DNA of 64,000 nucleotides from Leucoraja erinacea (Eukaryota), in NCBI RefSeq assembly GCF_028641065.1, contig NC_073402.1:27900001-27964000 (forward strand), written 5' to 3'. Numbering within the stretch: the stretch's first letter is position 1; the number at the start of each line of letters is the position of its first letter. Below the pieces are notes generated by a model that was not told the DNA's origin, searched no databases, and saw only the letters and a program-made list of their open reading frames with translations. Positions 2,338-51,390 of the stretch are shown here, in pieces. A program made the translations under genes and the position numbers.

Positions 2338-2387
2338 GCCAACACCAAAGATACTAGAGGAGCTCCTCTAGTATCTTTGGCCAACAC
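2338..2387. mobile_element. 34-bp perfect palindromic insert with 8-bp TSD (DNA-transposon footprint, P-like)
   Basis: GCCAACAC (2338-2345) + CAAAGATACTAGAGGAGCTCCTCTAGTATCTTTG (2346-2379) + GCCAACAC (2380-2387). Confidence 0.8.
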
Positions 2388-2401
2388 TGTGAGCGGGGAA
2401 G

Positions 2402-2497
2402 ATGGCGCGATTCTTCTCCAACTTTTACCAGGGCAGTAACAGGTGCCTCTGCTGCCACTTCCGAACAGGCTGCATCATCCTGACCGCTACTTACACG
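2402..2497 (+). CDS. LAPTM5: LAPTM-family (LAPTM5-position) exon 1
   Basis: Strong Kozak aagATGG; MARFFSNFYQGSNRCLCCHFRTGCIILTATYT matches the LAPTM N-terminal CxCCH(V)RTG motif; donor ACG|GTTAGT, phase 0. Confidence 0.85.
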
Positions 2498-4761
2498 GTT
2501 AGTGCGGCAAATTTGAAAACGAAATAGCAAGCAAAATGATGGCACAAAATAATGAACCGACGAACATGTGTGTGTGTATGTGAGGTGAATCCCCACCCGG
2601 GCTACAGAGGGCAGGTCATGAGGCGGTGGCTTGAGGCGCCAACGACCATTATTGATAAAAAATTAAGCCACGGCGCATTTTCTTTAAAAGTTAAGCAATT
2701 AGCAGTAAAGGAAATGAACACTTGCAGTGAGGAGATGCGTCTGTTTTGATGTTTTGGGGCGGGGCGGGCCGGCTGCTGCATTTGAGGCCTTCTCTTGCCG
2801 CCACTGGCTGGCGGGCGGACGATAACGGTCGGCGGGCGCGAGCTCCTCCCTCCACCCCCCACCCCGGCCGTTAGTGATGGAACCTGGCCTTCAAAATTAA
2901 AACCTTTCTGTTTAGAAATACTTCTTTAAGTTTAACGTTTGAGGTTTTTTTCAATAATGGCATATTTATTTTAAAACATTAACCCATGTTGCTTTCTTAT
3001 ATTGAGGGAGGGGGGAAGGAATGGGTAAGGTTTTGTTTTTAACCACAATTTATTTCTTTTGGTTTAGGATCAATCATTTAAGAACTCATCCTTAGCCCAA
3101 TTTCCCATCGATCTTTTTGGATGCATTTTGGTCTTTCAATCTTATGGGGTGTACTAGATAGGCGAACCTTTGTGTAAGAAGGAACTGCAGATGCTGGTTT
3201 AAACCAAAGATAGACACAAAATGCTGGAGTAAGTCAGTGGGACAGGCAGCATCTCTGGAGAGAAGGAATGGGAGATGTTTGGGGTCGAGATCCTTCTTCA
3301 GACTGGTTAGGGATAAGGGAAACGAGAGATATAGACGATGATGTGGAGAGATAAAGATCAATGAATGAAAGATATGGAAAAAAGTAACGATGATAAAGGA
3401 AACAGGCCATTGTAAACTGTCGGGTGAAAATGAGATGAACTTTTGTGGTGCATTCGGTTTTTCAATCTCATGGGTAACCAGTTAAACTGTTGGCATTTGG
3501 TCTTGTTATCTCTTGGGTTTACTTATCCTTAGCTAGGCATATGACCATCATATTTGGTATCGCTCTCAACCAATGTTCATATTCCCAACCTTGGTTATGT
3601 ATCTGCCCAGTACACTTCGGGTAAAAGGGTCCCGACCTGAAACGTCACCCAGCCTTGTTCTCCAGAAATGTTAACTGACTCGCTGAGTTACTCCAGCACT
3701 TTATATTTATTTTCAAAGCATTTTATAAATCCAAATTGTCCAGCCTGCAGTCTGCATTAATTCTGACATTTCTATACCTACCAAACCTCTCAGCTGTATA
3801 TTACCCTCCATTTCAATGCCTAGGCGCTCTTAAAACCAACTGGCTGTTATCAATGTACAGTACAGAAGATACAGATGGTGTGCCAGACTTGCACATAAGC
3901 CCAATTGAAGACTATACTTATCTACCAAAAACTGCTTATTATTCCAGCATCATCCTGTAATCCTAGAACAATGCTGACTTCTTGAAACCATTGCATATGA
4001 GTTTTGTGATTCACATAATTGATTAACTGTTTAAGATGCCTGGATATATCTAAAACATACCCCAATTAACAATAAAATTGCATAGAAACATAGTCAATAG
4101 GTACAGTAGGCCATTATGCCCTTTGAGCCTGCACCTCCATTCAATGTGATCAAGGCTGATCATCCTGATTCAGTATCCCTTTCCTGCTTTCTCCCCATAT
4201 CCCTTGATTCCTTGAATTCTTTACACTTTAAATAAATGGGATAATACATAGCCATATAGCCTCAGTTTGATGTTCAAAACTCTGATATAAGAGAATTTTA
4301 TACCGCATATGAATTTACATTTGATATTAAGTGTATATGGGTCTCAGTAACTGGTTTATTCTGCTTTATTCTTTCCCGCAATGTGTGAGTGGCTGTTATG
4401 GTCTTCATTGCATCTGATCATTGATTGTGTGATGCTGCCTTGACACTTTGATCGGATAATTCTAAGGCTATGGAATGTCAATGATCAATCAAACTTGCTA
4501 ATTAGAGATGCTGATTACCAGTGAAGTTACAAATACGTGAGAATTTTAACCAATAATAAAGGGATGAAAATATATTACCAAAGGTTGAGTGGTGTATGAC
4601 TTGGAGATGGGCTTGCAGATGATAGTGTTCCCAAATGCCTTCTGATCTTGTCCTTCTAAGTGGTACAGGTTGCTGTTTGGAAAGTGCTGACAAAGGAGCC
4701 GTGGAAGATTTCTGAAGAGCATCTGGTAGATAGTACATCCTATAGTCTCATGAAGCATTGG

Positions 4762-7925: not shown

Positions 7926-8034
7926 GTTATCTGGACTGTAATGGCTGGATTTGAACTGGTGAGATTATTCAGGCCAGATTCAAAAGTAGATGTTTCTGTG
8001 GTCGGTATTCATTTTGAAGGCTTTTTTCAGGGAG
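7926..8034 (+). CDS. LAPTM5: LAPTM-family exon 2
   Basis: Acceptor ctgatag; open frame VIWTVMAGFELVRLFRPDSKVDVSVVGIHFEGFFQG completes TM1; donor GAG|GTAGGT; phase 0 to 1 fits both neighbours. Confidence 0.7.
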
Positions 8035-8925
8035 GTAGGTGAATACTTTGAGTGTTTTTTCCCGATTTTTAATGCAGTTTAGATTAGAAAATCTTCAATG
8101 TTATTCACAACAATCTATTCTAAATTTGTAGATCATTTGGTGAAAAAAAAGAAAACAACTTGCTAAAGTGACTTGATTTGGCAGCTGTTATTAAATCAAA
8201 TGAAGGTTTATTAACCCATTTATCCTGAATGCTTATTCCGCTCACATCTCCCATGATGAGCAATTGTTATTATTTATTTATTTTTTTTGGCCTTGATATG
8301 CACGTTCAAAAGTCTCATGGCTGCACAAGAAAATAGCCTGAGAATTTGAATGTTTTTGACTCTGTCTCAAAGTTATAGGTTTATCGATCAGTGCACATAT
8401 CCAGGCTGCCATTCCAGTGTAGTACTAAGAGAGTGCTTTGCTGTCAGAGCTGTCAGATGGCTTTGGAATGGCATCTTGCACTGAAATCTCATCTGTCCCC
8501 TCAAGTGCTGCAAAAAGTCCTTTAACACTATTTTAATGAATAGCACATATTCAGTGTAGAGAACAATATTTGCCCCTAATTTAACATTCCTAAAAGATTG
8601 CTATCAAAGGATTAATGCACTTCATTAGCTGCAAAGCATTTAAGACCACATTGAGCTTGCAATAGGTGCTATATATATATGCACAGTAGTTTTCTTTCAC
8701 ATCCAATTTCAGTTGAATTGGAATTATTAAAATGTTGGCTAATTATTCTATTATGTTAACTAATTCAATTAAAATGCAATTCTATGGACTCTAGGTAAAA
8801 TCTATGTACAGTGCTTATCAATCCTAAGGCAATGTTCTATTTGATTTGATGATTAATTGTAACAGTATACTGACATTATTCACAGACATTTCCTATTAAT
8901 GTTAAAAATGTACTATGTCTTTCAG

Positions 8926-9002
8926 TGGACACTTTTACATCCCTTATTTTTGACATTTTCCTGACTGCTGTCAGTGGCTTGGCAGTTTATGGAATTATTA
9001 AG
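8926..9002 (+). CDS. LAPTM5: LAPTM-family exon 3 (TM2)
   Basis: Acceptor tctttcag; (V)DTFTSLIFDIFLTAVSGLAVYGIIK aligns with human LAPTM5 ADLISSFLLITMLFIISLSLLIGVVK; donor AAG|GTAAGA; 77 nt. Confidence 0.85.
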
Positions 9003-10916: not shown

Positions 10917-11048
10917 TACTATCCGTATTTTCTGATTCCATTTATAATTTACCTGGTAGTGGACTTCATCATCTATTGCATAGAAGTAGTTGGCATCTAC
11001 GTTGAGTTACCAGAACGCGTACATGTCAAGTATTATGTTAAAAACGTG
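10917..11048 (+). CDS. LAPTM5: LAPTM-family exon 4 (TM3)
   Basis: Acceptor ttctgatctag; YYPYFLIPFIIYLVVDFIIYCIEVVGIYVELPERVHVKYYVKNV aligns with LAPTM5 KYLLPFLSLQIMDYLL...SYIELP; donor GTG|GTAAGT. Confidence 0.85.
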
Positions 11049-13088: not shown

Positions 13089-13184
13089 TTTTTTTTCCCA
13101 GAAAAGGAAGCTGTTTCTGGCCCAGGCAGCAGAAGAGCAATGATTATGTTTTCACTTATGTTCATATCAGTTATGCTTTTAAAG
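13089..13184 (+). CDS. LAPTM5: LAPTM-family exon 5 (last TM)
   Basis: FFFPEKEAVSGPGSRRAMIMFSLMFISVMLLK (32 aa) aligns without gaps to human NYLPSQEDMPHNQFIKMMIIFSIAFITVLIFK; in-frame acceptor gctaag; donor AAG|GTAAGA. Confidence 0.8.
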
Positions 13185-14471: not shown

Positions 14472-14570
14472 TGCTACTTCATCCGTGCTGTGTACAAATG
14501 CTACAAGTTTATTAAGGATTTGGAACACGAGAGCAGCTTGGTGGACACGCTCCTTGATCTTCGTGCTCGG
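14472..14570 (+). CDS. LAPTM5: LAPTM-family exon 6
   Basis: Acceptor gactctag; CYFIRAVYKCYKFIKDLEHESSLVDTLLDLRAR matches the LAPTM Y..kcVw.CYr.I motif; donor CGG|GTTGGT. Confidence 0.8.
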
Positions 14571-15382
14571 GTTGGTTTCACTTGAACAATGAGCAGGAAA
14601 TAGATGTATATTAAATATGCTGCCTTCCTTCCTTTGGCTATGGTCAAACCAGAGATTTTAACTGTTTATATTAGAAGCCAAGTATATGGAGATTTTGCCC
14701 ATGAACCATGTGGATGCGTTATCTCTGAACGTCTGCTGATTGTAATGTTATACTGATGGATATTATGAAATTGGTAAGAATTTCTGGTAATACGCATGGT
14801 TACACTGGTGGAGTTTATACTAATTATGTGTACATTTCCAATGGGTCATTATTCTCTCAAATCTTCCCCTTGGAAACTAAAACAGTGAGGTAGATCGGAT
14901 ACCATCACAACTGACTGATCTGTCCTGGTGCAATGTGTTACTCAAGTATCAGGATCGTTGTAGTTAGATTGAATGTTTGTGCAATTTCAAGTTGCGATAA
15001 AGCATGTGTCCACAGCGTCTCTTCACCTTACTCCTTCCCACAGCCCTTTAAAGACATGTAGCCCCGCTATGTTTAGGCGACCCAACACATACTAAATCAG
15101 ATGGGAACTGTGTTGATTACATGGCTCACTCACATATTATGTTAACAGATTTCCAATTATATTATACTTGACCTTTATTACAAGTCTGTAGCATGATACT
15201 GATTTCATTTGCTAAAAGATGTTGGAATTTCTTGGGAACATATGAAGATAACTAATGCCTGTTCATTTAGAGGTTAATCTGTATTTGTTGGACATCGGAA
15301 TTGACTTTCCTTGGTCAAGTATATAGTTTCAGTCTTGAATATATAAATTGTTTTTTTTATTGTTTCTGTGTTTTTCAAATAG

Positions 15383-20969: not shown

Positions 20970-21015
20970 ATTCAGACCATCCTAGAGGAGCTCCTCTATA
21001 ATCTTTGATTCAGAC
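20970..21015. mobile_element. 30-bp insert of the same family with 8-bp TSD
   Basis: ATTCAGAC + CATCCTAGAGGAGCTCCTCTATAATCTTTG (20978-21007) + ATTCAGAC. Confidence 0.75.
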
Positions 21016-23103: not shown

Positions 23104-23206
23104 ATGATGGGACTTTGCACTGGACTGCTCCTGTCTGCCTTACTCCTCGTTCAGGTCAATGGGGTGCCTAAACCTAAAGTAAAACCCGGTCCACAGACTC
23201 CAGCCG
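23104..23206 (+). CDS. MATN1: Matrilin-1 exon 1 (signal peptide)
   Basis: MMGLCTGLLLSALLLVQVNG hydrophobic signal, then VPKPKVKPGPQTPA; donor CCG|GTAAGA, phase 1 matches exon 2. Confidence 0.85.
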
Positions 23207-25289
23207 GTAAGAAGATACATTTATATACTCTTGATGAAAACAAAAGTTATTCCACCTTTTTTTTTAAATCAGTTTCTTATACTTTCGAACCCTCCCGCCC
23301 ATAAAGTACAACAAGTATGTTTCATCAGTTACTTATCCTTTAGAATTTCCCCGCCCATACAGTATGTACCATCAACTTATAATTTAGAACTCTCCCGCCC
23401 ATAAGGTAGATTAAGTATAAATTTCATGTCTCTTACTCTTTAGATATCTCCTGCCCAAATGACCAGTGTTAATGCATTTTTTCCAACATGTACTTAAGGA
23501 ATTTCACCTGTTTTAAGGAGTTGTTTGCATCCAAATCAATATTGAGTGAAATAGCACAACTCATGATATAATTTCAATATTATTCTGACATTATGAACGA
23601 TATTGACTGTTCGTGTTATCTTTTGTTCAAGATCTTCAGATTATTCATCCTGCAGATTACATGTATTAGTTCAGGAGTTATAATTGGACATCCCAGTGCT
23701 GCCATGGTTACTTGCTGAAGGAACACCTAGACTTTAGCAACGTCTTTAATTGTATTTGGCATTTAAACCCCAAGTGACGAGGGAGGCAACCATTCTAACT
23801 GGTCAAACCATAAATAATGTTAATGGTGTAACAACTGGACTAGGTTAGTGCTAAGAAATGCGAGCTAATTTTCCACAGTCTTATTGATAATAATACATCA
23901 TTGCAGAAAACACTTACATAGGACATGCATTAAACATTGTGAACATCAATATTGCAACATAAAAATTCCAAGATGCATTGTAACGAAAGAGCCATCATCC
24001 AAACATGACATTGACCAGGTATGAAACCAGGGAAATTTCATATCGATACAAGGAACTGCAGATGCTGGTTTACAAGAAAAGGCACAAAGTACTGGAGTAA
24101 CTCAGGGGGTCAGGCAGCATCTCTGAAGAACACAGATAGTGATGGTTCAGGATGGGACTCTTCTTCAGACTGATTGTAGGGGGGGTGGGGCGGGGAAGAA
24201 AGCTGAAATAAATTCCATGTGTCTGACGTACTATAATAAACAAATTATTCCCCTATTTCAGTATCAGGAGCATCCTCAAAATAACCATTTTGATGCTGTG
24301 GGACAATGGGTTTGTGGAGGGAAAATATCAATGGAAATTCTCTTTGCATATCCACCACTTTGTTGGTTATATAGACTATTAGATGGGGATTGGTCGTGTT
24401 GCAGCGTATGCCAGCGTTATCGTAGTTGCCTTGTAAATATTTACAGACAATAAAATGAATATTAGGTTTCAGCTGCTAACATCTTCAGTGTTCCACATTT
24501 CATTATGTACTTCTGTGTGATCGTGTCACCCGAATGTTGTGAATGCCTTTCGCAGTCCATCTGTGCTATAATGTATCCGGCTCCGATCACTTTGCCAAAT
24601 GATTGATCAGTGTCTGTGTTTTTCATGCTTCTTGGCGTTTCACCCCAGCCTGCAAGCAACAGATTATTATGTCACAACGATAAATGATTTACAGTTGATG
24701 GGATTGGAAGTGAAAAGTTGTACTTGACCCTTCTAAGAGTACTCATTGAAAGCAGCCTCACTTCTGTTGGGAACTGGTCACCCTACTTTGTTCAATTGTC
24801 TCTATGGAATTCAATGTGTATGATTGCAGGGTTTTGGAATAGATTGCAAAGACGATGCTATCTGTTGAAAAGTAAAGCCTAACTTTTTAAATGCTGTTAT
24901 TATCTTTGTGGTTGTTGAGAGTAGTGTTATTACAATGCAGCTGAGACACATTGGGTTCAGTTCAGACTACTGTTGACTTAGCCAATTCTACATGGTTGGT
25001 AGGAATACTTCATTTGACCACCGTATCCATTGGAGAAAATAACTGCAGTGACCCCTACTGGAAGGTAGTGAGGGGGATTGGGTGGCATTGGCTCCAGCCC
25101 TGTCCTAATAATGGTCGGCTGTTCCAATTCCAAGAATGTCCCATGGACAGAGGGGTCCCATAGTGCTACTGCATCTCAATAAAGCATTCAGGCTGAGGAA
25201 GTGGGAATTTTCAATGAAAAAATACCTGTGTTAAAAACAGCATTTGTACCATTCATAAATGAGTGATAGGAACATAAGCATTTAGAGGT

Positions 25290-28229: not shown

Positions 28230-28560
28230 GGGGTGACCTATCCTGGGCTCAGCACAGGGATGCATGTCGTCGAATACTCTTAACACATTTCTGGATACAT
28301 ATATATATAATAACAGATGCATCATAGCCTGATATGGCAAGTCCAATGCACAGGAATGCAAGAGGCTGCAGAGAGACGTGGACTCAGCCCAGTCCATCAT
28401 GGACACAGCTCTCCCCATCATGGAGAGCAGCTACACATGGTGCTGCATCCACCATCAAACATCTCCATCATCTGCTACACACCCTCTTCATGCTGCTCCT
28501 GTCAGGCAGGAGATGCAGCACAGCCTGAGGTCCCGCAACACAAGGTTCGAGTACAACTAC
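28230..28560 (+). mobile_element. Rex1/Babar-like LINE RT C-terminal remnant, interrupted by a CR1 end at 28565-28755
   Basis: LQRDVDSAQSIMDTALP...LLLSGRR pattern; a related remnant lies at 49325-49490. Confidence 0.55.
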
Positions 28561-29808: not shown

Positions 29809-32800
29809 GTAACTATCACTACTTTTTAATAATAGAACCAAAGAGACTATCCATTCAGTCTGATTTTACACCAGGTTTCTATAATAGTGGATATTTCTTA
29901 AGGCAGAGACCGATACATTCTTGATTAGTACGGGTGTCAGAGGTTATGGGGTGAAGGCAGCAGAATGGGGTTAGGAGGGAGAGATAGATTGACCATAAGG
30001 TTGAAGATAGACACAAAAAGCTGGAATAAACTCAGCGGGACAGGCAGCATCCCTGGAGAGAAGGAATGGGTGATGTTTCGGGTCAAGACCCTTCTTCAGA
30101 ATGGTCATAAGGAATAGGACTAGAATTTGGCCATGCGGCCCATCACCTACTCCGCCATTCAATCATGGCTGATCTATCTCTCCCGCTATGATTGAATGGT
30201 GCAGGAGACTTGATGGGCCGAATGGCCTAATTCTACTCCTATCACTTATGACCTTATGGCCTTCTGGTGGTGTTAAGCTTCAGCAATAGGCTTTCATCCT
30301 TCCAAGTCAAGTCAAGTCAAGTCAAGTTTATTTGTCACATACACATACGAGATGTGCAGTGATGTCCAGGAACAGCTTCCATCTTCATCGAAAGGCCTGG
30401 TGTCTTCTCCACCATTTCTGCTACTTGGACAGTAACATCAGATTTGATGCTCACTGTTTAGTCAATACAGATAACTATCTAATGAACATTCAGCTGAAAA
30501 ATCACCTGTGATAAATCCATGAATCCATTGACGCTTTGAAGTGGTTCAAATGTTCAAGTGAAATAAATGGAATACAAAAAATACACAATTTCAATTAGCT
30601 AAAATGAATGAAGGAAAATTTAAGAACTAATAGACTATTTGACCCGCTCAGTCAAATCATAACTGATCTATTGATTCAGTGTGGTCATCCTGCTCCAAGC
30701 CTGTACCCAGCATCATTTAAAAAGAGGAACTTGTGATATTCCCATTCTGTTGGATTTTAAGTGACCCAAGCTAAATATGAGTTGTTGTCCTTACTGTTGG
30801 TGTGGAAAAACCCAACAGTACAAAGAATGACTTCGCTGACTTCAAGTGAACTCCCCAACCCCTCATTATCAACCCCTCCCCAATGTCCCCTCACATCAAA
30901 TTTCCTTTCTCCAGCTTTATATTTGACTCCTTCCCCAATCTGACACCATCTTGTCTCCTTTTCACTTCTGGCCTTTGTCACCACCTCCACCCATCTGTCG
31001 ATCACCTCCCCTCCTCAAACCCCCAACTTCACGTGTAGCCACCCATCATTTGCCAGGCCTTTCCCCACCCTTACCTCTCATTTTCATCTCCCACCCCCAC
31101 TCCATCAGTCTGAAGAAGGGAACTTTAAACCTACTTTGCTAATCAAGTGATTAAAAAAAATGTGAAATCAAATATCCGTTGGTTTCAATGAGGATGATTG
31201 TTTTCTTAACAGAAAGAAAATTACTGCTGATGCTTAAATTCTGTAACAAAATAAGAAAATGCTTAAAGCACGCAGCTCATTAGCCAGCATCTTTTTTTAA
31301 AAATGTATTTATTTATTTATTAGAAGCAAATGTACAAGAGTAGAACAAACGGCATAAAAAATGATACAGTTAATGTACAGCTTCAATTTTAACTTTTTAG
31401 CTTTAAAATAAAGGAAAAGAAAGGAGAGAACAAGAGAGAGAAAAGGTTGAGGTAGGCAGCATCTTTGATAAAGTAAACTGAATTAGCAATTCAGGTCACT
31501 GGCTTTTCATTAGAACTCATTGATTACATTTCACTGGAAATTTAAGTTCTCCGCGTCATTCTGTAACACTTCCAGGTTTTTCATAATCTTACAGTTGTTA
31601 TTGTGTCACAGAGTTCGTTTAAGCAATATTTTCTAAGAATTCTGGTTCTTGTTTGCCTGTAATCAGGCTTTAAAAAAAAGGCGTCTCTTTCAAATGGTAA
31701 AAAGCTAGCTGAGAATATTATACAGTCTACAAAGAGACTCCTGTCGTGGTTCTGGAGGAGATCTGTCTGAGCGCAGCATAATGCATCTGCTGTGTGAAAT
31801 TGTTTGACAGGGTATGTCTGCACAATATTGAATGAACTTACAGTTACAGAAGGATTAGTGCTTTAAGAAAACATTATTTTAAAAAATAATTAAACCAATG
31901 AGACCACGATAAACAACTGGTTTCCAGCATGAAGGATGTTAATGTAACCTTTGATAGACACAAAATGCTGGAGTAACTCAGCGGGACAAGCAGCATCTCT
32001 GGAGAGAAGGAATGGGTGACGTTTCTGGTCGAGACTCTTCTTCAAACTGAGAGTCAGGGGAGAGGGAGCTGCCTGTCCCGCTGAGTTACTCCAGCATTTT
32101 GTGTCTATCTTTGGTGTAAACCAGCATCTGTAGTCCCTTCCCTCACATTATTGTGACCTTTAATGGTTCAATGGCAGAATGGCACGGTACACTTGCACAA
32201 ACACTGCACCACACAGGATAGAAGGAATAGGTAACGTTTCGGGTCAAGACCCTTCTTCAAACTGAAGAATCTCGACCGGAAACGTCAAGTCTGAAGAAGG
32301 GTCTCGACCCGAAACGTCACCCATTCCTTCTCTCCAGAGATGCTGCCTGTCTTGTTGAGTTACTCCAGCATTTTTCATTTATCTTCGGTGTAAACCAGCA
32401 TCTGCAGTTCCTTCCTACACTAAACCGCATTGTTTTTGCTCGAATCCACACTTCACTAACAGAACTTGTATACGTGCGGGCACCATGGAGAGGCCACTGA
32501 GAGAAAGATAATATTGTGGGAACGATCACAGGTTCATCGGGTTTTTGCCTGGGAAAAAAGCTGACAAAATTCCTGAGGGCAGGTCAGCTGACTGCTACAG
32601 AAATAAACAGAAACATTTTTGAAATAAGACATTCGTTTAGTGATAAATAATAACTCGTAAACTCCACATCTTGGTGCGCTTGATCCTTGATTTACTCTCC
32701 AACCTTGAATGGAATTCCACTGCTGAAAATGAGTAATAATGCAGTCGAATATTCCAACATTAGTGTAAACTCTACCACCGCTGGACCACTTGTAAGGAAA

Positions 32801-32911
32801 TACTTCCTGACCCAGGGAAACTAGTTGATGAAAACAACATGCATGCCTTTAAGGGATTGGTCTCCCTACAACCCAACCACTATGGACAGGTCAACTAAAC
32901 TGAATGGTGTA

Positions 32912-33195
32912 AGGGCAGCACAGTGGTGCAGCGGTGGAGATGCTGCCTCACAGCGCAGAGACCCGGGTTCAATTCTGACTACGGGTGCTGTCTGAAAGGA
33001 GTTTGTACGTTCTCCCCGTGACTGCGTGAGGAGTTTTCTCCCGGTGCTCCGGTTTCCTCCCACTCTCCAAAGACATTCATCTTTGTAGATTAATTGGCTT
33101 TCTTTTGTAAAAATTGTAAATTGTCCCTAGTGTGTACGAGGTGGTTGGTGGTCGGCGAAGACTCAGTTAGCTGATGGGCCTTTCTCCGTGCTGCA
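32912..33195 (+). mobile_element. V-SINE (HE1-like)
   Basis: A-box/B-box head (GTGGTGCAGCGG; GGGTTCAATTC) and V-domain GTTCTCCCCGTG...GTGCTCCGGTTTCCTCCCAC. Confidence 0.75.
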
Positions 33196-33725
33196 ATATT
33201 TGATAGTGTAACCGTCTTTCCAGTTTCACTTTATTACAAAATGAGTGATACGGGGGATAAATACCTTTAGAAATGAGGTGTGGATTGGTGGGGGGGGGGG
33301 GGGGGGGGGGTGAATATGTGGAGTTAATTACCATAGACTGCAACGGAGGCCAAGTCAGTGGGTATTTTTAAAGCAGTTATTGGCAAGTATTTGTTTGGGA
33401 AGATTCTCAAAGGTTATGTGGAGAATGCAGGGGAATGGGGTTGAATTGAGAGGGAAAGATAGATCAACCATGATTGAATGGTGGAGTAGTGTCCATTGGC
33501 CTAATTCTGCTCCTATGACTTGTGAACTTTTGAAATCGCCCACGAACTCAGTTCCATTATTGGTGACTAATGCAAGAGGGTAACCAACTTTCATAAGTGA
33601 TAGAAGCAGAATCAGGCCATTTGGCCCATCAGGTCTACTCCGCCTCGTAACCCCATTCTCCTGCCTTCTCCCCATAACCCCGTGACACCCGTACTAATCA
33701 AACTTTGTGCCCATTCTGCCCGTAG

Positions 33726-33948
33726 GTAGCCATCATTGTGACCGACGGCCGACCCCAGGACCGCGTGCGAGATCCCGCCACCCGTGCCAAACAGAAAGGC
33801 ATTGAGATCTTTGCCATCGGTGTGGGCAGGGCAGAGCTGAACTCCCTCCGCGAGATCGCCAGCGAGCCTCTGGAAGACCACCTGGACTACGTAGAGAGCT
33901 ACAGTGCCATCGAAAAACTTTCCAAAAAATTTAAGGAAGCTTTCTGTG
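33726..33948 (+). CDS. MATN1: Matrilin-1 exon 3 (vWA1, C-part)
   Basis: [16 protein letters not shown]...FAIGVG...IASEP...KFKEAFC; acceptor cgtag; donor GTG|GTGAGT. Confidence 0.97.
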
Positions 33949-34620
33949 GTGAGTAAAACAGCAAAGAATATGGAAAGATACGGAAAGATGTTAGGACAGC
34001 ATATCAGAGCCTACCTCATGCTTGTAATGTTGCAAGACAGGGACATCATTGTCAGCAGGTGTTGGGGCAATGCTTGTGCGATGCCAATGTTAAACGCCAT
34101 ACTTTACAGACATTTTTTAAACAGTATATGTAAAATACATATGCATTATTGAAAGGAACTAGGTAGAATTTAGTAGTAGTAGGTCTGAAGAAAGTTCCCG
34201 GCCCGAAGCGTCACCCATCCATTTTCTCCAGAGATGCTGCCTGACCCGTTGAGTTACTCCAGCACTTTGTATCTATCTTAAGTGTAATTTATCCCATGAA
34301 GGAGGCATACACAAGTCTACAGGCTATTTTGCAATTTGCCCCAACATACAGGTAACGTGGATTTAGACTCCAAGACCTATTCTGCTGTACATTCAGATCA
34401 ATAAATTAATTGTTTTGATTTTGTGGCTTTGAATTTCCTTCACCTTTATACTTTGACATATATCGCAAGAGACCGAAAACCAACTATGTGACTTAAAATA
34501 TCATGGAATATTACCCAAATAAATGCCAAAGTTTATTGGCCTTTTACATCCATTAAACACTGCAGCTGAATGTATCTCCTCACACAGTGAGTTATCCTTC
34601 AACTGTGCTTGTATGCAGTT

Positions 34621-34925
34621 TGGGCGGCACAGCAGCGCAGCGGTAGAGTTGTTGCCTCACAGTGCCAGGGACCCGGGTTCGATTCTGATCTCGGGAGCTG
34701 TCTGTGCAGAGTTTGCACGATCTCCCTGTGACTGTGTCGATTTCCTCGGGGAGCTCCGGTTTCCTGACACACCCCAAAGATGTGCAGGTTTGTATGTTAA
34801 TTGGCCTCCGTAAACTCCGTCAAGTGTAGGGTGTGGAGGTGTAAGTAGGATAGCATAGAACCAGTGTACAGGCAATCGGTGATCGCTGGTCGATGTGGGC
34901 TCGATGGGCCAAAGAACCTGTTTCT
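34621..34925 (+). mobile_element. V-SINE (HE1-like)
   Basis: Same head and V-domain as the 32912 copy. Confidence 0.75.
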
Positions 34926-35161
34926 ACGATCACCAAAACGTCACCTATTCCTTTTCTGCAGCGATGCTGCCTGTCCCGCTGAGTTACTCCAGCATTTTGT
35001 GTCTTATCTTCGGTGTTAACCAGCATCCGCAGCTCCTTCCGGCACGCGGTGTCTGGATCTATTGGCAAATTATTTTTGAAATTCTCTTTGGCCAAATTTG
35101 CATTTGGAAATTGCTTATTTTCCCTGACGATATTTTAACTAGTTTGAACTCTGTGTTTCAG

Positions 35162-35284
35162 TGGTGGATCTGTGTGCAAGCGGCGACCATGACTGTGAGC
35201 AGGTGTGCGTGAGTGTTCCTGGCTCTTACAAGTGTGCCTGCAATGAAGGATTCACACTCAACCCAGATGGAAAAACTTGCGGGA
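35162..35284 (+). CDS. MATN1: Matrilin-1 exon 4 (single EGF domain)
   Basis: [41 protein letters not shown], six Cys; acceptor tttcag; donor GGA|GTGAGT; 123 nt, phase 1-1. A single EGF domain supports matrilin-1 over matrilins 2-4. Confidence 0.97.
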
Positions 35285-36111
35285 GTGAGTCTTGATTACG
35301 TGTAGAATATTTTTGTTGAAACGTTGAACATCAGCTAGCCTATTCATCTGTTTACATCAGTTACATAAATGCACAAAACTATCCATTAGTCTGCATGACC
35401 TCATGAACAACACTAGCATACACAATCCAAGATGATTGTACAGGTTTGTAGTTCATCATGGAATAGCCCACAGTGCAAAAATGTGTCCAATTTTACCTTA
35501 TTTAAGGTAAAGGTTGTTCTCCTTGCTGTGCTCAGTTTACATTATCTATACATTTTCCAAGACAATCATCCCTCTCCGAATTCACTTTTCCTCAAAAGTC
35601 TCCCTTGCCTCTGTTCAGGAGCCCCAGAGGGTGGTGAATCTGTGGAATTCATTTCCACAGACGGCTGCAGAGGACACGTCACTGGGTATTTTTAAAGAGG
35701 AGATTGATAAGGTTCCTGTTTAGTAAGGGTGTCAAAGATTATGGGGTGGAGGCAGCAGAATGGGGTTGAGATTGAAAAATAGATCATCTGCTATCGAATG
35801 TTGGAGCAGACCCGATGGACTGAATGGCTTAATTTTGCTCCCATGTCTCATGATCTTATGAGAAGAAACTGGTGGTGCACGGTTTCAAGCTTCTGTATTT
35901 CCTGTCTGATGGGAGCAGGGAGAAGAAGTAATGCCCGGGGTGAGAAAATCCTACGATTTGTGATGCTAAACTGGAAACACCAGATCTAGACAAGAGATGA
36001 ACATAAACACACACAAGGCATTTCTTTCCTTTTGTAAACTGGGCATTGTAGATTGGGCTGCCATGACTGGCCACAGGACTCTTGTTAATTTTAAAATGTT
36101 ATTATTGATTC

Positions 36112-36112
36112 T

Positions 36113-36157
<45 letters not shown>

Positions 36158-36360
36158 CTTATTTATATAGCACATTTTTAGTCAACTTGCATTGACCCCA
36201 AAGTGCTTCACATAATTACATTACATTTACACACAGGCAAAGGTGGGTGAAGTGTCTTGCCCCAAGGACACAACGACAGTATGCACTCCAAGCGGGATTC
36301 GAACCAGCTACCTTCCGGTCACCAGCCGAACACTTAGCCCATTGCACCATCTGTCGTCCC
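36112..36360 (-). mobile_element. tRNA-derived CORE-type SINE with L2-type tail and (TTA)n
   Basis: Minus strand: B-box GGTTCGAATCC, core-like GTGTCCTTGGGGCAAGACACTTCACCC, tail TGTGAAGCACTTTGGG...GCTATATAAAT, then (TTA)n; ATTCTT on both flanks. Confidence 0.7.
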
Positions 36361-36375
36361 AATTCTTGCCTCAAT

Positions 36376-36619
36376 GGGCCTGTCCCACTTGGTTGTCATT
36401 TACACGTCATTTACGAGACATCATTTACGCGTCACGACACACGACGCGCGCGTTGTGACGCTCACGTGATGCGCGCATGTTGTGCATTATACGTGCATGG
36501 TCCGTGATGACGTAGGCAGTGACGCGCGGCTGTGCGCCGCTCCCCAGGATTTTGGGATGTACAAAACCTTTGCACGCCACCTGCGTGACGTGCAAATGGC
36601 GCCCAAGTGGGACAGGCCC
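36376..36619. mobile_element. MITE, PIF/Harbinger-like
   Basis: Terminal inverted repeats GGGCCTGTCCCACTTGG ... CCAAGTGGGACAGGCCC; CpG-rich interior. Confidence 0.7.
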
Positions 36620-36798
36620 TTACAAAGAAAAACTGGCTTTTTCAAGAGTGTATTATTCCGCTCAGCAGGAAGTTGTATCACTGCTGCGCCTGTTAGCCTC
36701 AGTCCTGAGAATGTGAATGACACAAGATAAATGTAAACTCTGTATTTATTTATTTATTTATTCTTGTTTTGTTTTTTTTTTGTTTTTTTCCCTCGCAG

Positions 36799-37203
36799 CT
36801 TGCAGTTCAGGAGCTGTTGATTTAGGTTTCGTTATCGATGGGTCAAAGAGTGTGAGACCTGAAAACTTTCAGCTGGTGAAAAAATTCATCAACCAGATTG
36901 TCGACTCCCTGGATATTGGTGACCAGCAGGCACGGGTGGCCCTTGTCCAGTACTCGAGCACGGTCAGGACAGAATTCCCCCTCAACAAGTTCAATACAAA
37001 GCAAAGCATCAAGGCTGCCGTCAAGAGAATGGAGTACATGGAGAGAGGAACGATGACAGGCCTGGCTCTGCAACACCTGTCCGAGAAGGTCTTTCTCCCG
37101 TCCCTAGGAGCAAGGGACAACATCCCAAAAGTCGGAATTGTCTTCACTGATGGTCGCTCACAAGATTACATTAATAGTTTTGCCGAAAAGATCAAAAATC
37201 AAG
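36799..37203 (+). CDS. MATN1: Matrilin-1 exon 5 (vWA2, N-part)
   Basis: CSSGAVDLGFVIDGSKSVRPENFQLVKKFI...GTMTGLAL...KVGIVFTDGRSQDYI; acceptor cgcag; donor AAG|GTGATG. Confidence 0.97.
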
Positions 37204-37236
37204 GTGATGCTAACAAAGCGCTCTTGTTTATAGACC

Positions 37237-37588
37237 CCCATATGCTTGGCATGGGAGGGAATTGTACAACTAAGGGGCCAACTCCAGAACCAGGGGCCAC
37301 AGTTTAAGAATAAGGAGTAAGCCATTTAGAACGGAGACGAGGAAACCCTGTTTCTCACAGAGAGTGGTGAGTCTGTGGAATTCTCTGCCTCAGAGGGCGG
37401 TGGAGGCGGGTTCTCTGGATGCTTTCAAGAGAGAGTTAGATAGGGGTCTTAAAAATAGCGGTCAGGGGATATGGGGAGAAGGCAGGAACGGGGTACTGAT
37501 TGGGGATGATCAGCCATGATCACATTGAATGGCGGTGCTGGCTTGAAGGGCCGAATGGCCTACTCCTGCATCTATTGTCTATTGTCTA
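37237..37588 (+). mobile_element. CR1/HER1-type LINE 3' fragment
   Basis: RTRGHSLRI...FSQRVVSLWNSLPQRAVEA motif; (CTATTGT)n tail. Confidence 0.8.
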
Positions 37589-37746
37589 TAAGGGCAATGA
37601 GCTGAGAAATTGGAGTAATTGAATAGATTTGCCAAAGATCTGGCAGACATATTCCTTCTGTACTGTGAAATTGATACTAGAACATAGAACAGTACAGGCC
37701 AGGAGCAGGCCCTTTGGCCCACAATATCTGTGCTGGATATGATGCC

Positions 37747-38075
37747 TGGGCAGCACAGTGGCTTGGCAGGTAGAGTTGCTGCCTCAGAGCACCAGAGATG
37801 CAGGTTTGACCCTGACCTCGGGTGCTGTCTGTCTGGAGTTTGCACGTTCTCCCTGGGGACGCATGGCTTTCTTCCCGGTGCTCCATTTCTTCCCACATCC
37901 CAAAAACGCACAGGTTTGTAGGTTAATTGGCCTCTGTAAACTGCCCCTAGTGTGTAGAGTGTGGATGGGAAGGCAGGATAACAGAATTAGTGTGAGCAGA
38001 TGATCGATATGGACTCGGTCGATATGGACTCGGTGGGCCAAAAGGCCTGTTTCCATGCTGTTTCTCTAAACTAAA
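37747..38075 (+). mobile_element. V-SINE (HE1-like)
   Basis: Head, V-domain and GGCCTGTTTCC...CTAAACTAAA tail. Confidence 0.75.
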
Positions 38076-38737
38076 CCAACTCTTATCTGCCTGCACATAA
38101 TCCATATCCCTCAATTCCCTATTCTGTAAGGAAACAATGATAACCCTTCCCCATTGTTTTTTAAAGTCCCTTCAGCAAATGTTTATTTACAATCAATATA
38201 TCGAATGCTGGCCTATTCCTAACCTGCTGTAAATTTTCCAGTTGAGCTCAATGTCATAAAACGTATGTAAGAAACATGATAAACACACTTTCTCTACCAT
38301 GCCTACAATCAGCTTCTCCCTTCAGTCGGGTGACGTTAATAACTGCCCTGGGAAAAAATCTCCTTAAAGTAACCTAATTCACAATGTGCAAATTTGCCTC
38401 ATGATAAACTGAACTCAAACATTTCAGTGCATAAATGACTTAACATAATTCTGCAGCTAATAGGTTGAGAGAGTTAACTGTGGGGCTGAGCTTGTTTACT
38501 TACAGACGGTAAATGGCTGCAAAATGTTGTTTCAAACAAATAAAAATACACACAGGAATACACTTTTATGCTGCTGCTATGGCGCTCCTAAATCACTCAA
38601 GATGTAACACATCCGTGGTATTCCACATAATAACACATGCCTGCAGCTTACATTGTTGAGAATGGAATCCTCACAGTTCAGTTCAGTTGTACCGAGGTGC
38701 AGTGAAAAGCTTTTGTTGCGTGCTATTGACAATAAAC

Positions 38738-39105
38738 AATAGACAATAGGTGCAGGAGGAGGCCATTCAGCCCTTCGAGCCAGCACCGCCATTCACTGTG
38801 ATCATGGCTGATCATCCACAATCAGTACCCCGTTCCTGCCTTCTCACCACATCCCCTAACCACTATCTTTAATAGCTCTATCTAACTCTCTCTTGAAAGC
38901 ATCCAGAGAATTGGCCTCCACTGCCTTCTGAGGCAGATAATTCCACAGATTCACAACTCTCTGGGTGAAAAGGTTTTTCCTCACCTCTGTTCTAAATGGT
39001 CTACCCCTTTTATTAAACCGTGGCTCCTGGTTCTGGACTCCCCCAACATCGGGAGCATCTTTCCTGCCTCTAACGTGTCCAATCCCTTAATAATCTTATA
39101 CGTTT
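38738..39105 (-). mobile_element. CR1/HER1-type LINE 3' fragment
   Basis: Reverse complement of the 46476-46953 type of copy. Confidence 0.8.
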
Positions 39106-39735
39106 CAATAAGATCCCCACTCATCCTTTCAAATTCCAAAGAGCATTCAAGCCCAGCCGCTCCACTCTAGTCAGCAGAAAGACAATACATGATTACAATC
39201 AAGCAATTTACAGTGTACAGATACATGCTAAGGGAATAATATTTAGTGCAAGTTAAAGCTAGTAAAGCCAGATCAAGGATAGTCTTGATAGTCATTACAC
39301 CAATGAGTAAATAGTAGTTCAGCACTGCTCCCTGGTTGTGGTAGGATGATTCAGTTGCCTGATAACAGTAGACATAGACCTTTCATTCCCTGCCCAACTT
39401 CAGCAGAGCAATCCCAAAGCTTGTTTTCTATTTCCCACATTAGCTCAACTGTGGCATCTTGATTCTAATTAAGGATTGGACTGCAGCATGTGGTACAGAT
39501 TTCTCAGCACCATTTAGTTATCGGATGACACCAGAGCATTAATTTTTCTCCTCGTTACACGACCGTCTAGAGTTCAGTATTTTAGTTATTGATGATAAGT
39601 GACAGAATGATGTCAAAATCTTACAACAATATGAACAGTATTGTAATGCTGATATTTCCCCCCATAGGCTCTTAGCAACGATCTCTTGGAAGGTTTTCAA
39701 AATGCAATCTGTGATTCATTCTTAACTGTTTTCAG

Positions 39736-39885
39736 GAATTAAGATGTTTGCGATAGGAGTTGGGAATGCACTTGAGGAAGAATTACGGATAATTGCTTCA
39801 GATCCAGTGAAGGATCATTATCATTATACCGCAGACTTCAAAACAATGAACCAAATCGCAGACAAATTACAAGTCAAAATATGTG
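39736..39885 (+). CDS. MATN1: Matrilin-1 exon 6 (vWA2, C-part)
   Basis: GIKMFAIGVGNALEEELRIIASDPVKDHYHYTADFKTMNQIADKLQVKIC; acceptor ttttcag; donor GTG|GTAAGG. Confidence 0.97.
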
Positions 39886-40459
39886 GTAAGGTCTTTTTTT
39901 TCCTCATTTTTCAAAATGTGGTCTCTTGTTTCTGTTGGTGTAAGTCTAGAGGGTTTTTTTTAAACTTTTCAGACTGGGAAGCACTGCAAATGTGAAATGC
40001 TCTCATCATTCTGCAAAGTATTAGATTTCTAAGAGTGTTTTATAGTCATATACGTCCTGAAACAGAACAATAAAATTCTTACGAGCAGCAGCAGCACAAC
40101 AGATAATATTCAGTGAAACTTAACCCTGAGATTGAAGGGAAAACCGAAATATCGCAAACTAATAATTTTTTGATTAATTTCAAAAAGGAATGGAATTTTG
40201 TAATGTTTATCTGAGACATCGAATATTCACATATGTAAAAACGTTTAATTTGGACAGACTGTAGTTGGGTAGTTACGACTTTGCCTGCTATTTAGGATTT
40301 TGTCTTTTAAATGAAATGCGAATCAAACTCCTCCGTCGCTCCTTTTTAATGGACATAAAATAAAACATCACTATTTCAGTGAAGAGTGTGGTAGTTCTTC
40401 CCAGTTTCCTGATCAATATTTATCCCTTATTGAACAGTAGTGAGCATTATGCCGTCATT

Positions 40460-40765
40460 AGGGTGGCACAGCAGTAGGGTTGCTGCCTTGCACCGCTTAC
40501 AGCATAGAAGACCTAGGTTCGATCCCGACTACGGGTGCTGTCTGTACGGAGTTTTACGTTCTCCCCGTGACCCCATGGGTTTTCTCCAAGATCTCCGGTT
40601 TCCTCTCACGCTCCAAAGCTGTACAAAGGTTTGTAGGTTAATTGGTTTGGTATAAATGTAAAATTGTCCCTAATGTGTGGAATAGTGTTAGTCTGTGGGG
40701 ATAGCTGGTGGGTACGGACACAGAGGGTCGCAGGGCCTGTTTCCACGCTGTTTCTCTAAACTGAA
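40460..40765 (+). mobile_element. V-SINE (HE1-like)
   Basis: B-box GGTTCGATCCC, V-domain and tail. Confidence 0.72.
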
Positions 40766-41527
40766 CCAGATCATTCTGCTGTTTGTGGGACACTCCTTAG
40801 AAGAAAGTCCTCTGAGGATGTGAAAGGGACAGGTGTTTCTGTTATATCCATTAACCCAAATCCTAACTTCAAACAAAAGTATGAACTACAGTACTCAAAG
40901 GAATATAATACTGTCATTGCAAAAAAAATCACATTGGTTTGAAGAAGCATATCTACAACAGATGCTTAGCTTATGTTGTGTCTGTATAATGAGAGGCATC
41001 AATCTTCTGATACAGAAAGAATCCATTGTGATCAATGAAATGTGATGCAAAATCAACTATAAACATCTCTGAAGCTATTCTTTTTTACTCATCTTGTTAC
41101 GAATGTAATCTGCATTTTCAAGATTCTTCATCTAATTTTCAGTAATGACCTGGTAATCGCAGTTCCTTCTGGGGGAATAAGTGGGGCTTTAGTTAAAATA
41201 CAAATAACTATACTATTCAGCTAAACTGGTAAAAATGAATCCCATTGCAACCCTAAAGGGTGGTAGACCTGTTGGGGATTTGTGTATATTTTTCCATCAG
41301 AAGTAAATTTAAAATTATAAAATAATTATTTGCATACTATACATAATTACATAAATATTCTGGCAGAATAAACACACGTCCTCACAGAGTATTCACATGT
41401 AATGAATTTCAGCCACGTGAAATTATTTTATCCATTCCTTTCCTACAGGTGCATAATATAAATATTGATATGGACCAGGGATTAAGTATGTTATTTAGCA
41501 AAATGGTGATTCCACCCCCCCTCCTCC

Positions 41528-41568
<41 letters not shown>

Positions 41569-41937
41569 AGCTTTTAAGTTACTTCAAGAAATTGAGCATA
41601 CCTCTTAAGAATGAGACCAGGGATTGATCCTGACTACAGGTGCTGTCTGTACGGAGTTTGGACGTTCTCCCCTATTGTATAGCACAGCGCTTAGAGTACG
41701 GAGGTCACTGGTTGGTATGGACCCGGAGGGCCAAAGGGCCTGTTTTCCCGCTGTATCTCTAAACTGAACTAAACTAAAACCTCAAAATTCCAAAATTTGA
41801 AATTAACAAAAAAATTGTTAAAACATTCTATAGGATTTCGGATTCTCCTTCAAAGTTTCAATCTTATTTCACACACTGTGAAATGTTTATAAATTCATTT
41901 GTAAGACACATTCAATTGAATTTGCAACTTGCCCATA

Positions 41938-42099
41938 TCAATGCCATCTTCTTCTTCTTGCGTATGGCGTGCACAGCCTAAAGTTGTAGGGCAACTTGTT
42001 CTATTTGATCTTATTTGATTGTGCACGCCGGGTTGATTGCATTCGTCGAAACAGGGCGGACCACGTGAAGGTTGCAATCTCCCACCCCGTCAATGCCAT
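41938..42099 (-). mobile_element. Truncated retroelement 3' end with (AAG)n tail and 10-bp TSD
   Basis: TSD TCAATGCCAT at 41938-41947 and 42090-42099; (CTT)n at the left end. Confidence 0.65.
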
Positions 42100-42791
42100 G
42101 AGTGTTACCAGATGCCAGTTACCAGGGAATACCTGGCATTGTTGCCAGCTGATAATCATTGCCAGGGTGCTAGTAATCAATGCCACAGTGATGCTGGATC
42201 TATGATGGATCGTCAACAAAGTCACTGAACCACTGACCCAGCGGGTCACAAATAACATATCTAAAGATGTAAAGTAAATCAGTGGAAGGAATGAATGAGA
42301 AATGCATTATGTAAATTTACGTCTAAGTATCTTGAAAGCACAAAAAAACCCTGCAGATTCTGAAAATCTGCAATAAATACAAAAACACAGGAGATACTCA
42401 TTTGATCAGGCGGCATTTCGTTGTCTCTAATGCATTTCGTTGTCTCTGTACTGTACACTGACAATGACAATTAAATTGAATCTGAATCTGAATCTGAATC
42501 TGTGAAGAATATAAGACAGTTAATGGCAATGATCTTGCAACAGAATAGTTTCTGATAAGCGGTTACTGACCTAAAACATTACCTTTGTGTCTCTCTCCAC
42601 AGGAGCTGCCTGATCCGCTGAGTATTTTTAGATTTAACAAATGCCCACTCTGTAGACAAAGAACGTTGTTTCCAGCATTTGCAACAGTTTACTTACCAAT
42701 AAATATCTACACTGCAACCTGCAACCTTGGTTCACGGAGAAATTGAAGAATATTGGTATTGTCCCCTCACCTGTCTTGTTTTTGCTTTCAG

Positions 42792-42878
42792 CTGCACCTA
42801 AAGACCCATGTGCCTGCGAGTCACTAGTGGAGTTCCAAAGAAAGGTCGAGAAAATTATTAAAACACTGACGTCCAAAC
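42792..42878 (+). CDS. MATN1: Matrilin-1 exon 7 (CxC and start of coiled coil)
   Basis: AAPKDPCACESLVEFQRKVEKIIKTLTSK, compare human DPCACESLVKFQAKVE; ends at U12 donor C|ATATCCTTTT. Confidence 0.95.
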
Positions 42879-43261
42879 ATATCCTTTTATTCTCATGTGC
42901 AGTTTATCATAAATATATACTCATATAAAATTATCTCAAATTTAGTTTAACCTTAATGTTGAAAAATTGTGTGCAATGTAGGCAGGGTTCATTTTGGAAC
43001 TTTTATTGCAATTTGCCTCTTACTGTTTGTGATCACCCTACATTTGATAACAATGAATGATCAACGAAAGCCATGAATGATACAACATTGGGATATGGTA
43101 GGGTGGTGGGTAAGTTACTGGAACAGTAGCCGATCATCTGAACCATTGGTCCAGAGACCTGGGTTCAAAGCCCTTGAGGGGAGGGGAGCAATCTAAAATA
43201 ATCTAATAAAGTAATTAGGTAAAATAAAGTAATTGAATAAATCTCAATTTAAGGAACCACA

Positions 43262-48809: not shown

Positions 48810-49092
48810 GTCTATTTTTCACACAGAGAGTGGTGAATCTCTGGAATTCTATTTTTCACACAGTGGTGAATCTCTGGAATTCTCTGCCACAGAAGATAGT
48901 TGAGGCCAGTTCATTGGCTATATTTAAGAGGGAGTTAGATGTGGCCCTTGTGGCTAAAGGGATCAGGGGGTATGGAGAGAAGGCAGGTACAGGATTATGA
49001 GTTGGATGATCAGCCACGATCATATTGAGTGGCGGTGCAGGCTCGAAGGGCCGAATGGCCTACTCCTGCACCTATTTTCTATGTTTCTATGG
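48810..49092 (+). mobile_element. CR1/HER1-type LINE 3' fragment with small 5' tandem duplication
   Basis: TCTATTTTTCACACAG...GTGGTGAATCTCTGGAATTCT occurs twice, followed by the standard 3' end. Confidence 0.78.
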
Positions 49093-49619
49093 TTCTAGAT
49101 GGAGATTAAGGGAAAGGGCACTGCAGAGTGAAACAAAGGCAAGGCCCACTGCATGGTGGAGCAAAGAGAGAGACCAGAACTGAATGGTTCAGCTGAGTAA
49201 TTAATGAATATCCCAAATCCCAACCTCCATTTGGAAGGTTCCCAGAACATCATTGTCAGATTGTCAAAACAAAGCACAACATTGATGAACAACTCTCACC
49301 AACTGCTGCAGAAGTAGAAACCATTTGATTGGGACACATCACAGCACTGTTTGGGAAAAGCTCCACCCAAGACTGCAAGAAATTGTGGACGCAGCCCAAA
49401 CCATCACACAAACCAACCTCCCTTTCATTGACTCCATCTACACTTCGTGCTGCTTCAGCAAGGCCGCCAGCATAATCGAGGATGAACTTTGTAAACTTCA
49501 TGCCCATTGTAACTATGTACACTTCATAAACATTGTTAGCGAGGAGAAGGTGACAACGAAGCATACAGAGATAAAATTTAATTAGGGGGACGGTCAGACT
49601 GTTCGTGGAACGAGGAAGG

Positions 49620-51390
49620 GGGAGGATAGACACATAAAGCTGGAGTAACTCACCGGGACAGGCAGCAGCTCTGGAGAGAAGGAATGGGTGACGTTTTGGG
49701 TTGAGGTCCTTCTTCAGGAATGGAGAGGGAAAGCAACGGTTACTTGAAGTTAGAGGAGTCATACCGCTGGGGTGTAACCTGCCCAAAGAAATATGAGCAC
49801 CTCCTAGCTAGCAATGATCCATTCTACATTTTCCTTAATAAATGTCCCCTTTGATGTATCATTTTCACACCTTACCCTTCCTTATCTCTGCATCTCCGTC
49901 TCCCTTGACTGTCTGTCTGAAGAAGGGTCTCGATCCAAAACATCACCCATTCCTTCTCTCCAGAGATGCTGCCCGTCCCGCTGAGTTACTCCAGCACTTT
50001 GTGTGTATCCCTGGAAAGAAGGAAGAGATGATGCTTCTAGTCAAAGATAGGCAGCATCTCTGTAGAGAAGTAGTGGGTGACGTTTTGGGTCGAGACCCTT
50101 CTTCAGACTAGTTAGGGAAAAGGTAAATGATAGATATAGATGATGATGTAAAGATGATGACGAGAGACAAAGACAATGAATGAAACATATGCACTAAAGT
50201 AACGATGATAAAGCAAACAGGCCATTGTTAGCTGTCTTGTCGAGACCCTTCTTCAGTCTGGTGGTGAATCTCTGGAATTCATTGCCACAGAAGGCTGTGG
50301 AGGCAAAATCAGTAGATATATTTAAGGCAGAGATACTGTAGCTAGATTCTTGATTAGTATGGGTGTCAGAGGTTATGAGGAGAAGCCACGAGAATGGGGT
50401 TAGGAGTGAGAGATAGATCAGCCATGATTGTATAGCGGAGTAGAATTGGTGGGCTGAATGGCCTAAATTCTACCCTATCACGTATGATCTTATACGTAGG
50501 ATGGAACTGTAGATGCTGGTTTAATCCGTAGACATAAAAACCTGCAGTAACTCAGCGGGCCAGGCAGCAGCTCTGGAGAGAAGGAATGGGTGACGTTTCG
50601 GGTCGAGACTAGTTCGGGAAAAAGGAAACGAGAGATATAGACAATAGACAATAGACAATAGGTGCAGGAGTAGGCCATTCGGCCCTTCGAGCCGGCACCG
50701 CCATTCAATGTGATCATGGCTGATCATCCCCAATCAGTACCCCGTTCCAGCCTTCACCCCAAATCCCCTGACTCTGCTATCTTTAAGAGCCCTATCTCGA
50801 CAATGACGTAGAGAAATAAAGACCAATGAATGAAAGATATGCAAAAAAGTAACAATGATAAAGGAAACAGGCTGTCTTGTCGAGACCCTTCGTCAGACTT
50901 GTGGTGAATCTGTGGAATTCATTGCCACAGAAGGCTGTGGAGACAAAGTCAGTGGATATCAAAGATTACAGAGGATCTTTGGTGGATATATTTAAGGCAG
51001 AGATAGATAGATTCTCAGAATTCTAGTACGGTTGTCATAGAAACATAGAAACATAGAAATTAGGTGCAGGAGTAGGCCATTCGGCCCTTCGAGCCTGCAC
51101 CGCCATTCAATATGATCATGGCTGATCATCCAACTCAGTATCCCGTACCTGCCTTCTCTCCATACCCTCTGATCCCCTTAGCCACAAGGCCACATCTAAC
51201 TCCCTCTTAAATATAGCCAATGAACTGTGGCCTCAACTACCCTCTGTGGCAGAGAATTCCAGAGATTCACCACTCTCTGTGTGAAAAGGTTATGGGGTGA
51301 AGGCAGGAGAATGGGGTGAGGAAGGAGAGATAATTGAATGACAGAGTAGGCTTGATGGGCCGAATGGCCTGATTCTTATCCTGTCACTTC
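49620..51390. mobile_element. Nested cluster of Penelope ends and CR1 fragments
   Basis: Several copies of both repeat types in both orientations, including a locally duplicated Penelope-CR1 junction. Confidence 0.7.
50952..50989. mobile_element. 22-bp insert of the CAAAGA...TCTTTG family with 8-bp TSD
   Basis: GTGGATAT + CAAAGATTACAGAGGATCTTTG (50960-50981) + GTGGATAT; the paralogous repeat at about 50310-50330 lacks the insert. Confidence 0.8.

Follow-up and report, generated by a model that had tools for sequence, protein, structure and literature searches.

Based on the analysis of a 64,000-nucleotide stretch of the skate Leucoraja erinacea (hereafter the window; NC_073402.1, positions 27,900,001 to 27,964,000, or G000:C26:27900001-27964000), we propose that a family of short inserts found there and across the genome very probably consists of donor-site scars of P-superfamily cut-and-paste transposons, in which the outermost bases of the element's ends lie between that element's 8-bp target duplications. 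The scar family is real and well supported as P-superfamily, and its variant features are a class of ends whose scars stop at 19 bases instead of 17 and the presence of mixed 17/19 products. More tentatively, we suggest that the 17-base stagger is not fixed, that an internal copy of the end motif would set the cut by pairing with the tip, with one enzyme cutting at both 17 and 19, and that the skate carries a complete, possibly active vertebrate P element; taken as a whole, this proposal seems to us nearly as apt to hold as to fail. The inserts of the window, and one empty site, are as follows (positions are those of the window).

2114-2130 (with duplications, 2106..2138), minus strand: one-armed fourth scar, its arm exactly 17 bp
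2346-2379 (34 bp; with duplications, 2338..2387), no strand assigned: complete 17+17 scar with the exact 8-bp duplication GCCAACAC on both sides
20978-21007 (30 bp; with duplications, 20970..21015), no strand assigned: 17+17-type scar with the exact 8-bp duplication ATTCAGAC
50960-50981 (22 bp; with duplications, 50952..50989), no strand assigned: trimmed scar, about 14+8, with the exact 8-bp duplication GTGGATAT
50231-50371, plus strand: paralogous repeat copy that is an empty site for the 50960 scar

A preliminary description had reported the last three of these inserts, each with an exact 8-bp duplication, and all three are present and above chance in the window as well as in the genome. 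It had called the longest exactly 17+17 and the others partial versions: among the three, the full 17-mer is indeed on both arms only at 2346, and the other two are more exactly a left arm without 4 bases near its end (20978) and a best 17-mer match that carries 1 mismatch (50960). The duplications of the fourth scar (2106-2113 and 2131-2138) are 7/8 identical here, and organisms B, C and D have letters at 2121 and 2138 that make its arm perfect and its duplication exact. The 50960 scar lies within an interspersed repeat, and since the paralogue at 50231-50371 has a single copy of the 8-mer and no insert, its duplication was made on insertion. At up to 3 mismatches the window holds 7 matches to the 17-mer against 1.28 expected, a number reached by 0 of 100 shuffles; duplication-bounded inserts starting with CAAAGAT number 5 (strand counts) against a mean of 0.025 and a maximum of 1 in 200 Markov resamples. 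Across the genome, the 17-mer is matched 994+988 times and its reversed control 5+9 times. Exact matches in the window are 4 against about 0.06 predicted from the genome average, an excess that is partly selection because the window was singled out for these inserts. A further candidate, at 57872-57888 with 2 mismatches, was set aside because it is not flanked by a duplication.

The parent elements tell what kind of transposon left these ends. The sequence at G000:C956:134044-144562 is a complete element of 10,519 bp with ends of the 17-base class and the duplication GTCGTGAC on both sides. Its open frame of 773 codons matches PF12017, PF21787, PF21788 and PF21789, all over cut-off, and has a single match in the PDB, the fly P transposase 6p5a (E 1.3e-42). 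Counted by hand on the 6p5a alignment with the residue list of PMC7776569, D230, D303 and E531 are all identical (3/3), as are 7 of the 8 GTP-site residues, K400 being R. The element also carries THAP exons: two exons in L131 align with the THAP domain PF05485, one over positions 1-28 (E 0.001, which is below cut-off) and the other over 49-87 (E 1e-6, above it). Long elements with these termini thus encode THAP and P-type transposase sequence, which supports the preliminary attribution to the P superfamily. A genome search for the P GTP-binding domain gave 38 matches, 20 of them extended, and 714 ends run on from the 17-mer into CAAGATAG. The paired ends that we fetched belong to non-autonomous elements of 1-7 kb, whose inverted repeats measure about 35 bp and whose duplications are of 8 bp; 28 whole elements have duplications that are exact or have 1 mismatch, and in six translated non-autonomous or partial elements no P-type frame was seen by eye. 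Protein relatives at E 1e-30 or better number 330, with P-type domains in 120 of 120 among the matches listed; the two named matches that list a P transposase are molluscan, 37-40% identical, and not THAP9. The 773-codon frames are 98.8-100% identical among themselves; because they lie on small contigs, two of which share flanks, they may be duplications or haplotigs.

A hAT or Merlin transposase inside these ends had been named beforehand as the contrary outcome. The 8-bp duplication is the one feature that would suit such an element, and the parent frame has P-type Pfam matches only, its PDB match being the P transposase. Hairpin-forming hAT excision leaves palindromes of flanking DNA, whereas the skate scars hold element ends. 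We therefore regard an origin from hAT or Merlin as negligible.

Two further observations concern the parent elements. L141 (G000:C3:15877194-15879368) has an open P-type frame of 733 codons, 68% identical to the C956 frame and with altered motifs; no ends were found nearby, and it is possibly a stationary or older copy. Neither the variable outer-arm bases 8-10 nor even the end class follows the internal left- or right-end sequence, as if outer arms were swapped during gap repair.

The position at which scars stop follows the structure of the intact ends, which run CAAAGAT...GAG and then continue with CAAGAT from base 18 (17 class) or base 20 (19 class). Among 87 motif hits the offset to CAAGAT is 17 in 70, 19 in 11 and another value in 6 (25 in three, 14-16 in three). 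The 19 class has whole elements of its own and 7,178 genome matches (control 8), and the 17-mer has 1,982, the two counts coming from different patterns. Matches to short inserts that hold a full arm number 1,116 for the 17 class and 2,184 for the 19 class, counted on both strands, with two-armed sites counted twice and repeat-borne copies included; only 27 short inserts run past the break into CAAG, among them 13 of 30 bases for which a second reading exists, as 19 bases, one filler base and 10. Exact 19+19 scars occupy 191 sites, and 17+17 scars built of 19-class ends occupy 0 sites genome-wide. Clustering 74 distinct scars by flank, with the 27 loci selected for overshoot left out, gave 64 independent events; none has CAAG after the break, and 45 have exact duplications. 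Among 30 loci, two (L015, L025) hold a one-armed scar of precisely 17 bp between exact duplications, and one-armed scars of exactly 19 bp were absent from 50 loci, where arms ended at 19 and were followed by filler or a trimmed partner. The ceiling near 34 bp expected earlier for insert length therefore applies to the 17 class only: the sister class gives 19+19 = 38, mixed scars give 36, and filler lengthens some.

These counts bear on two other origins. In one, whole elements would have lost their interior through recombination or a gap repair that was interrupted, unlinked to the cut position. Such deletion might draw on the self-complementary central GAG|CTC, and a few inserts do retain more internal sequence; a single stopping base in thousands of arms is not expected of it, however, nor is a stop that shifts by exactly 2 with the end class. 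The counts largely refute this origin, and we consider it very improbable. It is also hard to credit that the 34-38-bp palindromes are minimal MITEs (miniature transposable elements with inverted repeats) inserted as such. Many are perfect palindromes with exact duplications, and the one at 2346 forms a hairpin when folded (z -8), as expected of any such palindrome; yet they contain neither the inner half of the inverted repeat of about 35 bp nor subterminal sequence, one-armed inserts of 17 bp also have exact duplications, and arm types, trimming and filler vary between sites.

Some features of the scars were noted in passing. In trimmed partner arms (12 or 14 bases) the last letters are often AG, giving an AG|CT junction like that of the full-length scar, which may reflect the joining polymerase. 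The target duplications of the 64 independent scars have a palindromic bias, with G/C at position 1, T at 2, A at 7 and C/G at 8. At L037 (G000:C1:94968400-94969500) the unit of a 62-bp tandem repeat holds a 17-base arm; this minisatellite seems to have been seeded by a scar or to have caught one. Elements L131-L136 and the non-autonomous elements L032 and L081-L093, of 3.4-7 kb, carry old scars inside, of 31 bp and 36 bp in most copies and often a third, which suggests insertion into their own kind; being copied along with the elements, these internal scars inflated the genome-wide counts.

We suggest a plausible mechanism for scar formation. The transposase would cut the transferred strand at the tip of the element and the other strand just before CAAGAT, leaving 3' overhangs of 17 or 19 bases on the chromosome. 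End joining would then fill these overhangs and join them tip to tip, giving 17+17 or 19+19, and one arm would often be trimmed, or filler added, before joining, giving shorter or longer forms. The inserts of the window (17+17, 17, 17+17 minus 4, and about 14+8) agree with filling and joining combined with trimming. Fly scars keep 15-17 bp per end. A 17-base stagger, as read from the scars, would fit the 17 class, and the 19 class would have kept a long stagger of another length; by the same logic, we infer that the sister class is cut 19 bases inside. Less firmly, since mixed 17+19 scars exist, we infer that the inner cut is likely placed by the internal CAAGAT motif and not by a fixed 17-base ruler from the tip, which is the simplest reading. 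The AAGAT of this motif repeats end bases 3-7, and the cut strand could pair back with the tip of the transferred strand; in both classes this register has about 5 of 7 identities at one offset and at most 3 at four others. In the fly structure the looped-out transferred strand is paired with the cut strand's 5' part, and -14 to -18 are disordered (PMC7776569); the 2 extra bases of the 19 class, near positions 15-16, would fall inside this disordered stretch. The pair-back register is a prediction made by likeness to the fly transpososome.

The same scars could also be formed if each transposase subfamily had a fixed ruler of its own, 17 or 19, and if mixed scars came from mixed transpososomes or templated repair; we consider this possible, though not probable. 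In its favor, the frames inside 17-class ends and those linked to 19-class ends form two subfamilies, 75-79% identical, and 27 of the 28 whole elements have matching end classes. It is harder to reconcile with the remaining element, L034, whose two ends are of different classes and whose duplication is exact, with L144, in which a 19-class left end is joined to a transposase 97.6% identical to the 17-class one, and with the mixed scars, each arm of which stops at its class-specific base. Mixed 17+19 scars make up 4 of the 64 independent events, 3 of them with exact duplications; L170 is a likely fifth, and four further 36-mers are copies of one event.

Several points nevertheless weigh against a cut set by the internal motif and against the scar counts on which it draws. 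The cut positions are read indirectly, from repair products. Because the classes go mostly with the two transposase subfamilies, the difference between 17 and 19 may lie in the proteins. There are only a few mixed scars, and repair templated by another scar could account for them. The 27 inserts that include CAAG, and others with longer internal sequence, imply that some repair copies past the break. The 64-scar sample was picked by pattern and is rich in 34- and 38-mers, so that its length spectrum is not unbiased. Finally, many of the genome-wide matches are repeat-borne copies of a few scars (about 24 of 50 and about 30 of 50 among the sites listed, by eye).

The preliminary description also placed the inserts near CpG-rich regulatory DNA and proposed promoter-biased insertion. 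In the window this location holds for the 2114 and 2346 scars, which lie about 270 bp upstream and 22 bp before the LAPTM5 start codon (2402), respectively, and is plausible for the 20978 scar, in CpG-rich DNA between LAPTM5 and a matrilin gene, about 2.1 kb before the predicted first matrilin exon (23104). It fails for the 50960 scar, in its interspersed repeat. A long C-rich degenerate tandem repeat, with units around CCCCATCTTAT, occupies 51300-52800; the high G+C beside this scar is due to that repeat and not to an island. For the genome, CpG served as a proxy for promoters, start sites being at hand for the window only, where "promoter" means distance to the start codon. Within 250 bp on each side, the scars have a median of 3.4 CpG per 100 bp against 1.6 in 400 control tiles, drawn from C1 in 20 evenly spaced regions of 10 kb (p 3e-11; p 2e-4 with the 20 regions as units), and the difference survives repeat masking. 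Once 11 scars with flanks matching element interiors are set aside, CpG-island-like sequence surrounds 18 of the remaining 53 scars and 29 of the 400 tiles (odds ratio 6.6), and CpG declines with distance in 38 of the 53. In contrast, the flanks of 56 intact ends have no CpG enrichment (1.6 vs 1.6, p 0.23; near exceeds far in 27/56). Insertion bias alone is not enough to account for the enrichment of scars, and promoter-biased insertion is no more than a candidate reading: intact-element flanks are not enriched, and one of the three original examples lies in a repeat. Candidate alternatives are that large inserts were lost from regulatory DNA while scars were tolerated, that excision is easier in open chromatin, and that exact matches survive better in constrained DNA.

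The host genes of the window are the following.

2402-2500, 7926-8033, 8925-9002, 10917-11048, 13102-13184 and 14472-14600, plus strand: coding exons of LAPTM5
23104-42925, plus strand: matrilin gene after LAPTM5, with VWA exons at 29320-29826, 33726-33953, 36717-37304 and 39726-39992
23104 and 42656-42925, plus strand: predicted signal-peptide exon and coiled coil of the matrilin gene

Over 33 residues, LAPTM5 exon 1 shows full identity to a protein that is named by its source as coming from Amblyraja radiata, as would fit a skate. Organisms B, C and D share the 2114 and 2346 scars at the corresponding position, and these scars are therefore older than the split of the organisms; one 867-base contig of organism D spans both, with 26 differing letters over about 860 bases. 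The preliminary description had looked to related skates for empty or full alleles, and none was seen for either scar in organisms B, C and D (region 1990-3150). The runs of these organisms gave 135-324 further contigs, mostly with the scar motif only, so the scar family is shared. Of 218 reads in about 5% of an oligo-dT RNA run (X24), 0 fit the LAPTM5 locus; all have the scar motif with other flanks, and scars at other loci thus lie in transcripts.

In Drosophila, the P transposase makes one cut at the 3' end and one on the other strand, 17 bp further in; recombination or end joining repairs the donor break, and the element prefers promoter regions and hops locally (PMC7776569). The skate family is like it in its 8-bp duplication, in inverted repeats of about 35 bp (31 bp in the fly), in one end class that the 17-base stagger fits, and, by alignment, in a predicted THAP, helix-turn-helix and split RNase H architecture with a GTP-binding insertion and the catalytic and GTP-site residues (PMC7776569). 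It differs in a second end class, with scars stopping at 19, in the combination of 17 and 19 within some elements and scars, in a vertebrate genome that has naturally preserved well over a thousand scar sites, and in a transposase of only distant similarity. Zebrafish Pdre, with its transposase zfTHAP9, is likewise P-like; its duplications are of 8 bp, and a single full-length gene occurs beside copies with internal deletions. The terminal repeats of Pdre2 are 13 bp long and differ in sequence from those of the skate, its copies number about 50, and its transposase carried out excision but not integration in assays (PMC10983969). The results section on it gives no stagger length or natural scars (PMC10983969); in the skate, ends number in the thousands and a complete element encloses an open frame. 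Human THAP9, a domesticated P transposase of the same architecture, is described as having no inverted repeats or deleted copies (PMC7776569), whereas the skate gene lies inside mobile-element ends. The skate does not, then, fit the pattern of a domesticated THAP9, a single gene with no inverted repeats or deleted copies. In the full-text literature, Repbase and Dfam being outside its scope, we found no P elements of cartilaginous fish, natural P scars or 19-base stagger; a skate P family may already be catalogued in repeat databases.

The two natural end classes, which differ by 2 bases in the looped-out stretch and come with mixed elements and thousands of scars, are a substrate series for the placement of the inner cut. 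The complete skate element offers an open transposase frame together with its own ends, which human THAP9 does not have. The scars mark former insertion sites that are now without an element and are shared at orthologous sites between related organisms, and they leave insertions of 25-46 bp in CpG-rich DNA, including beside the LAPTM5 start codon.

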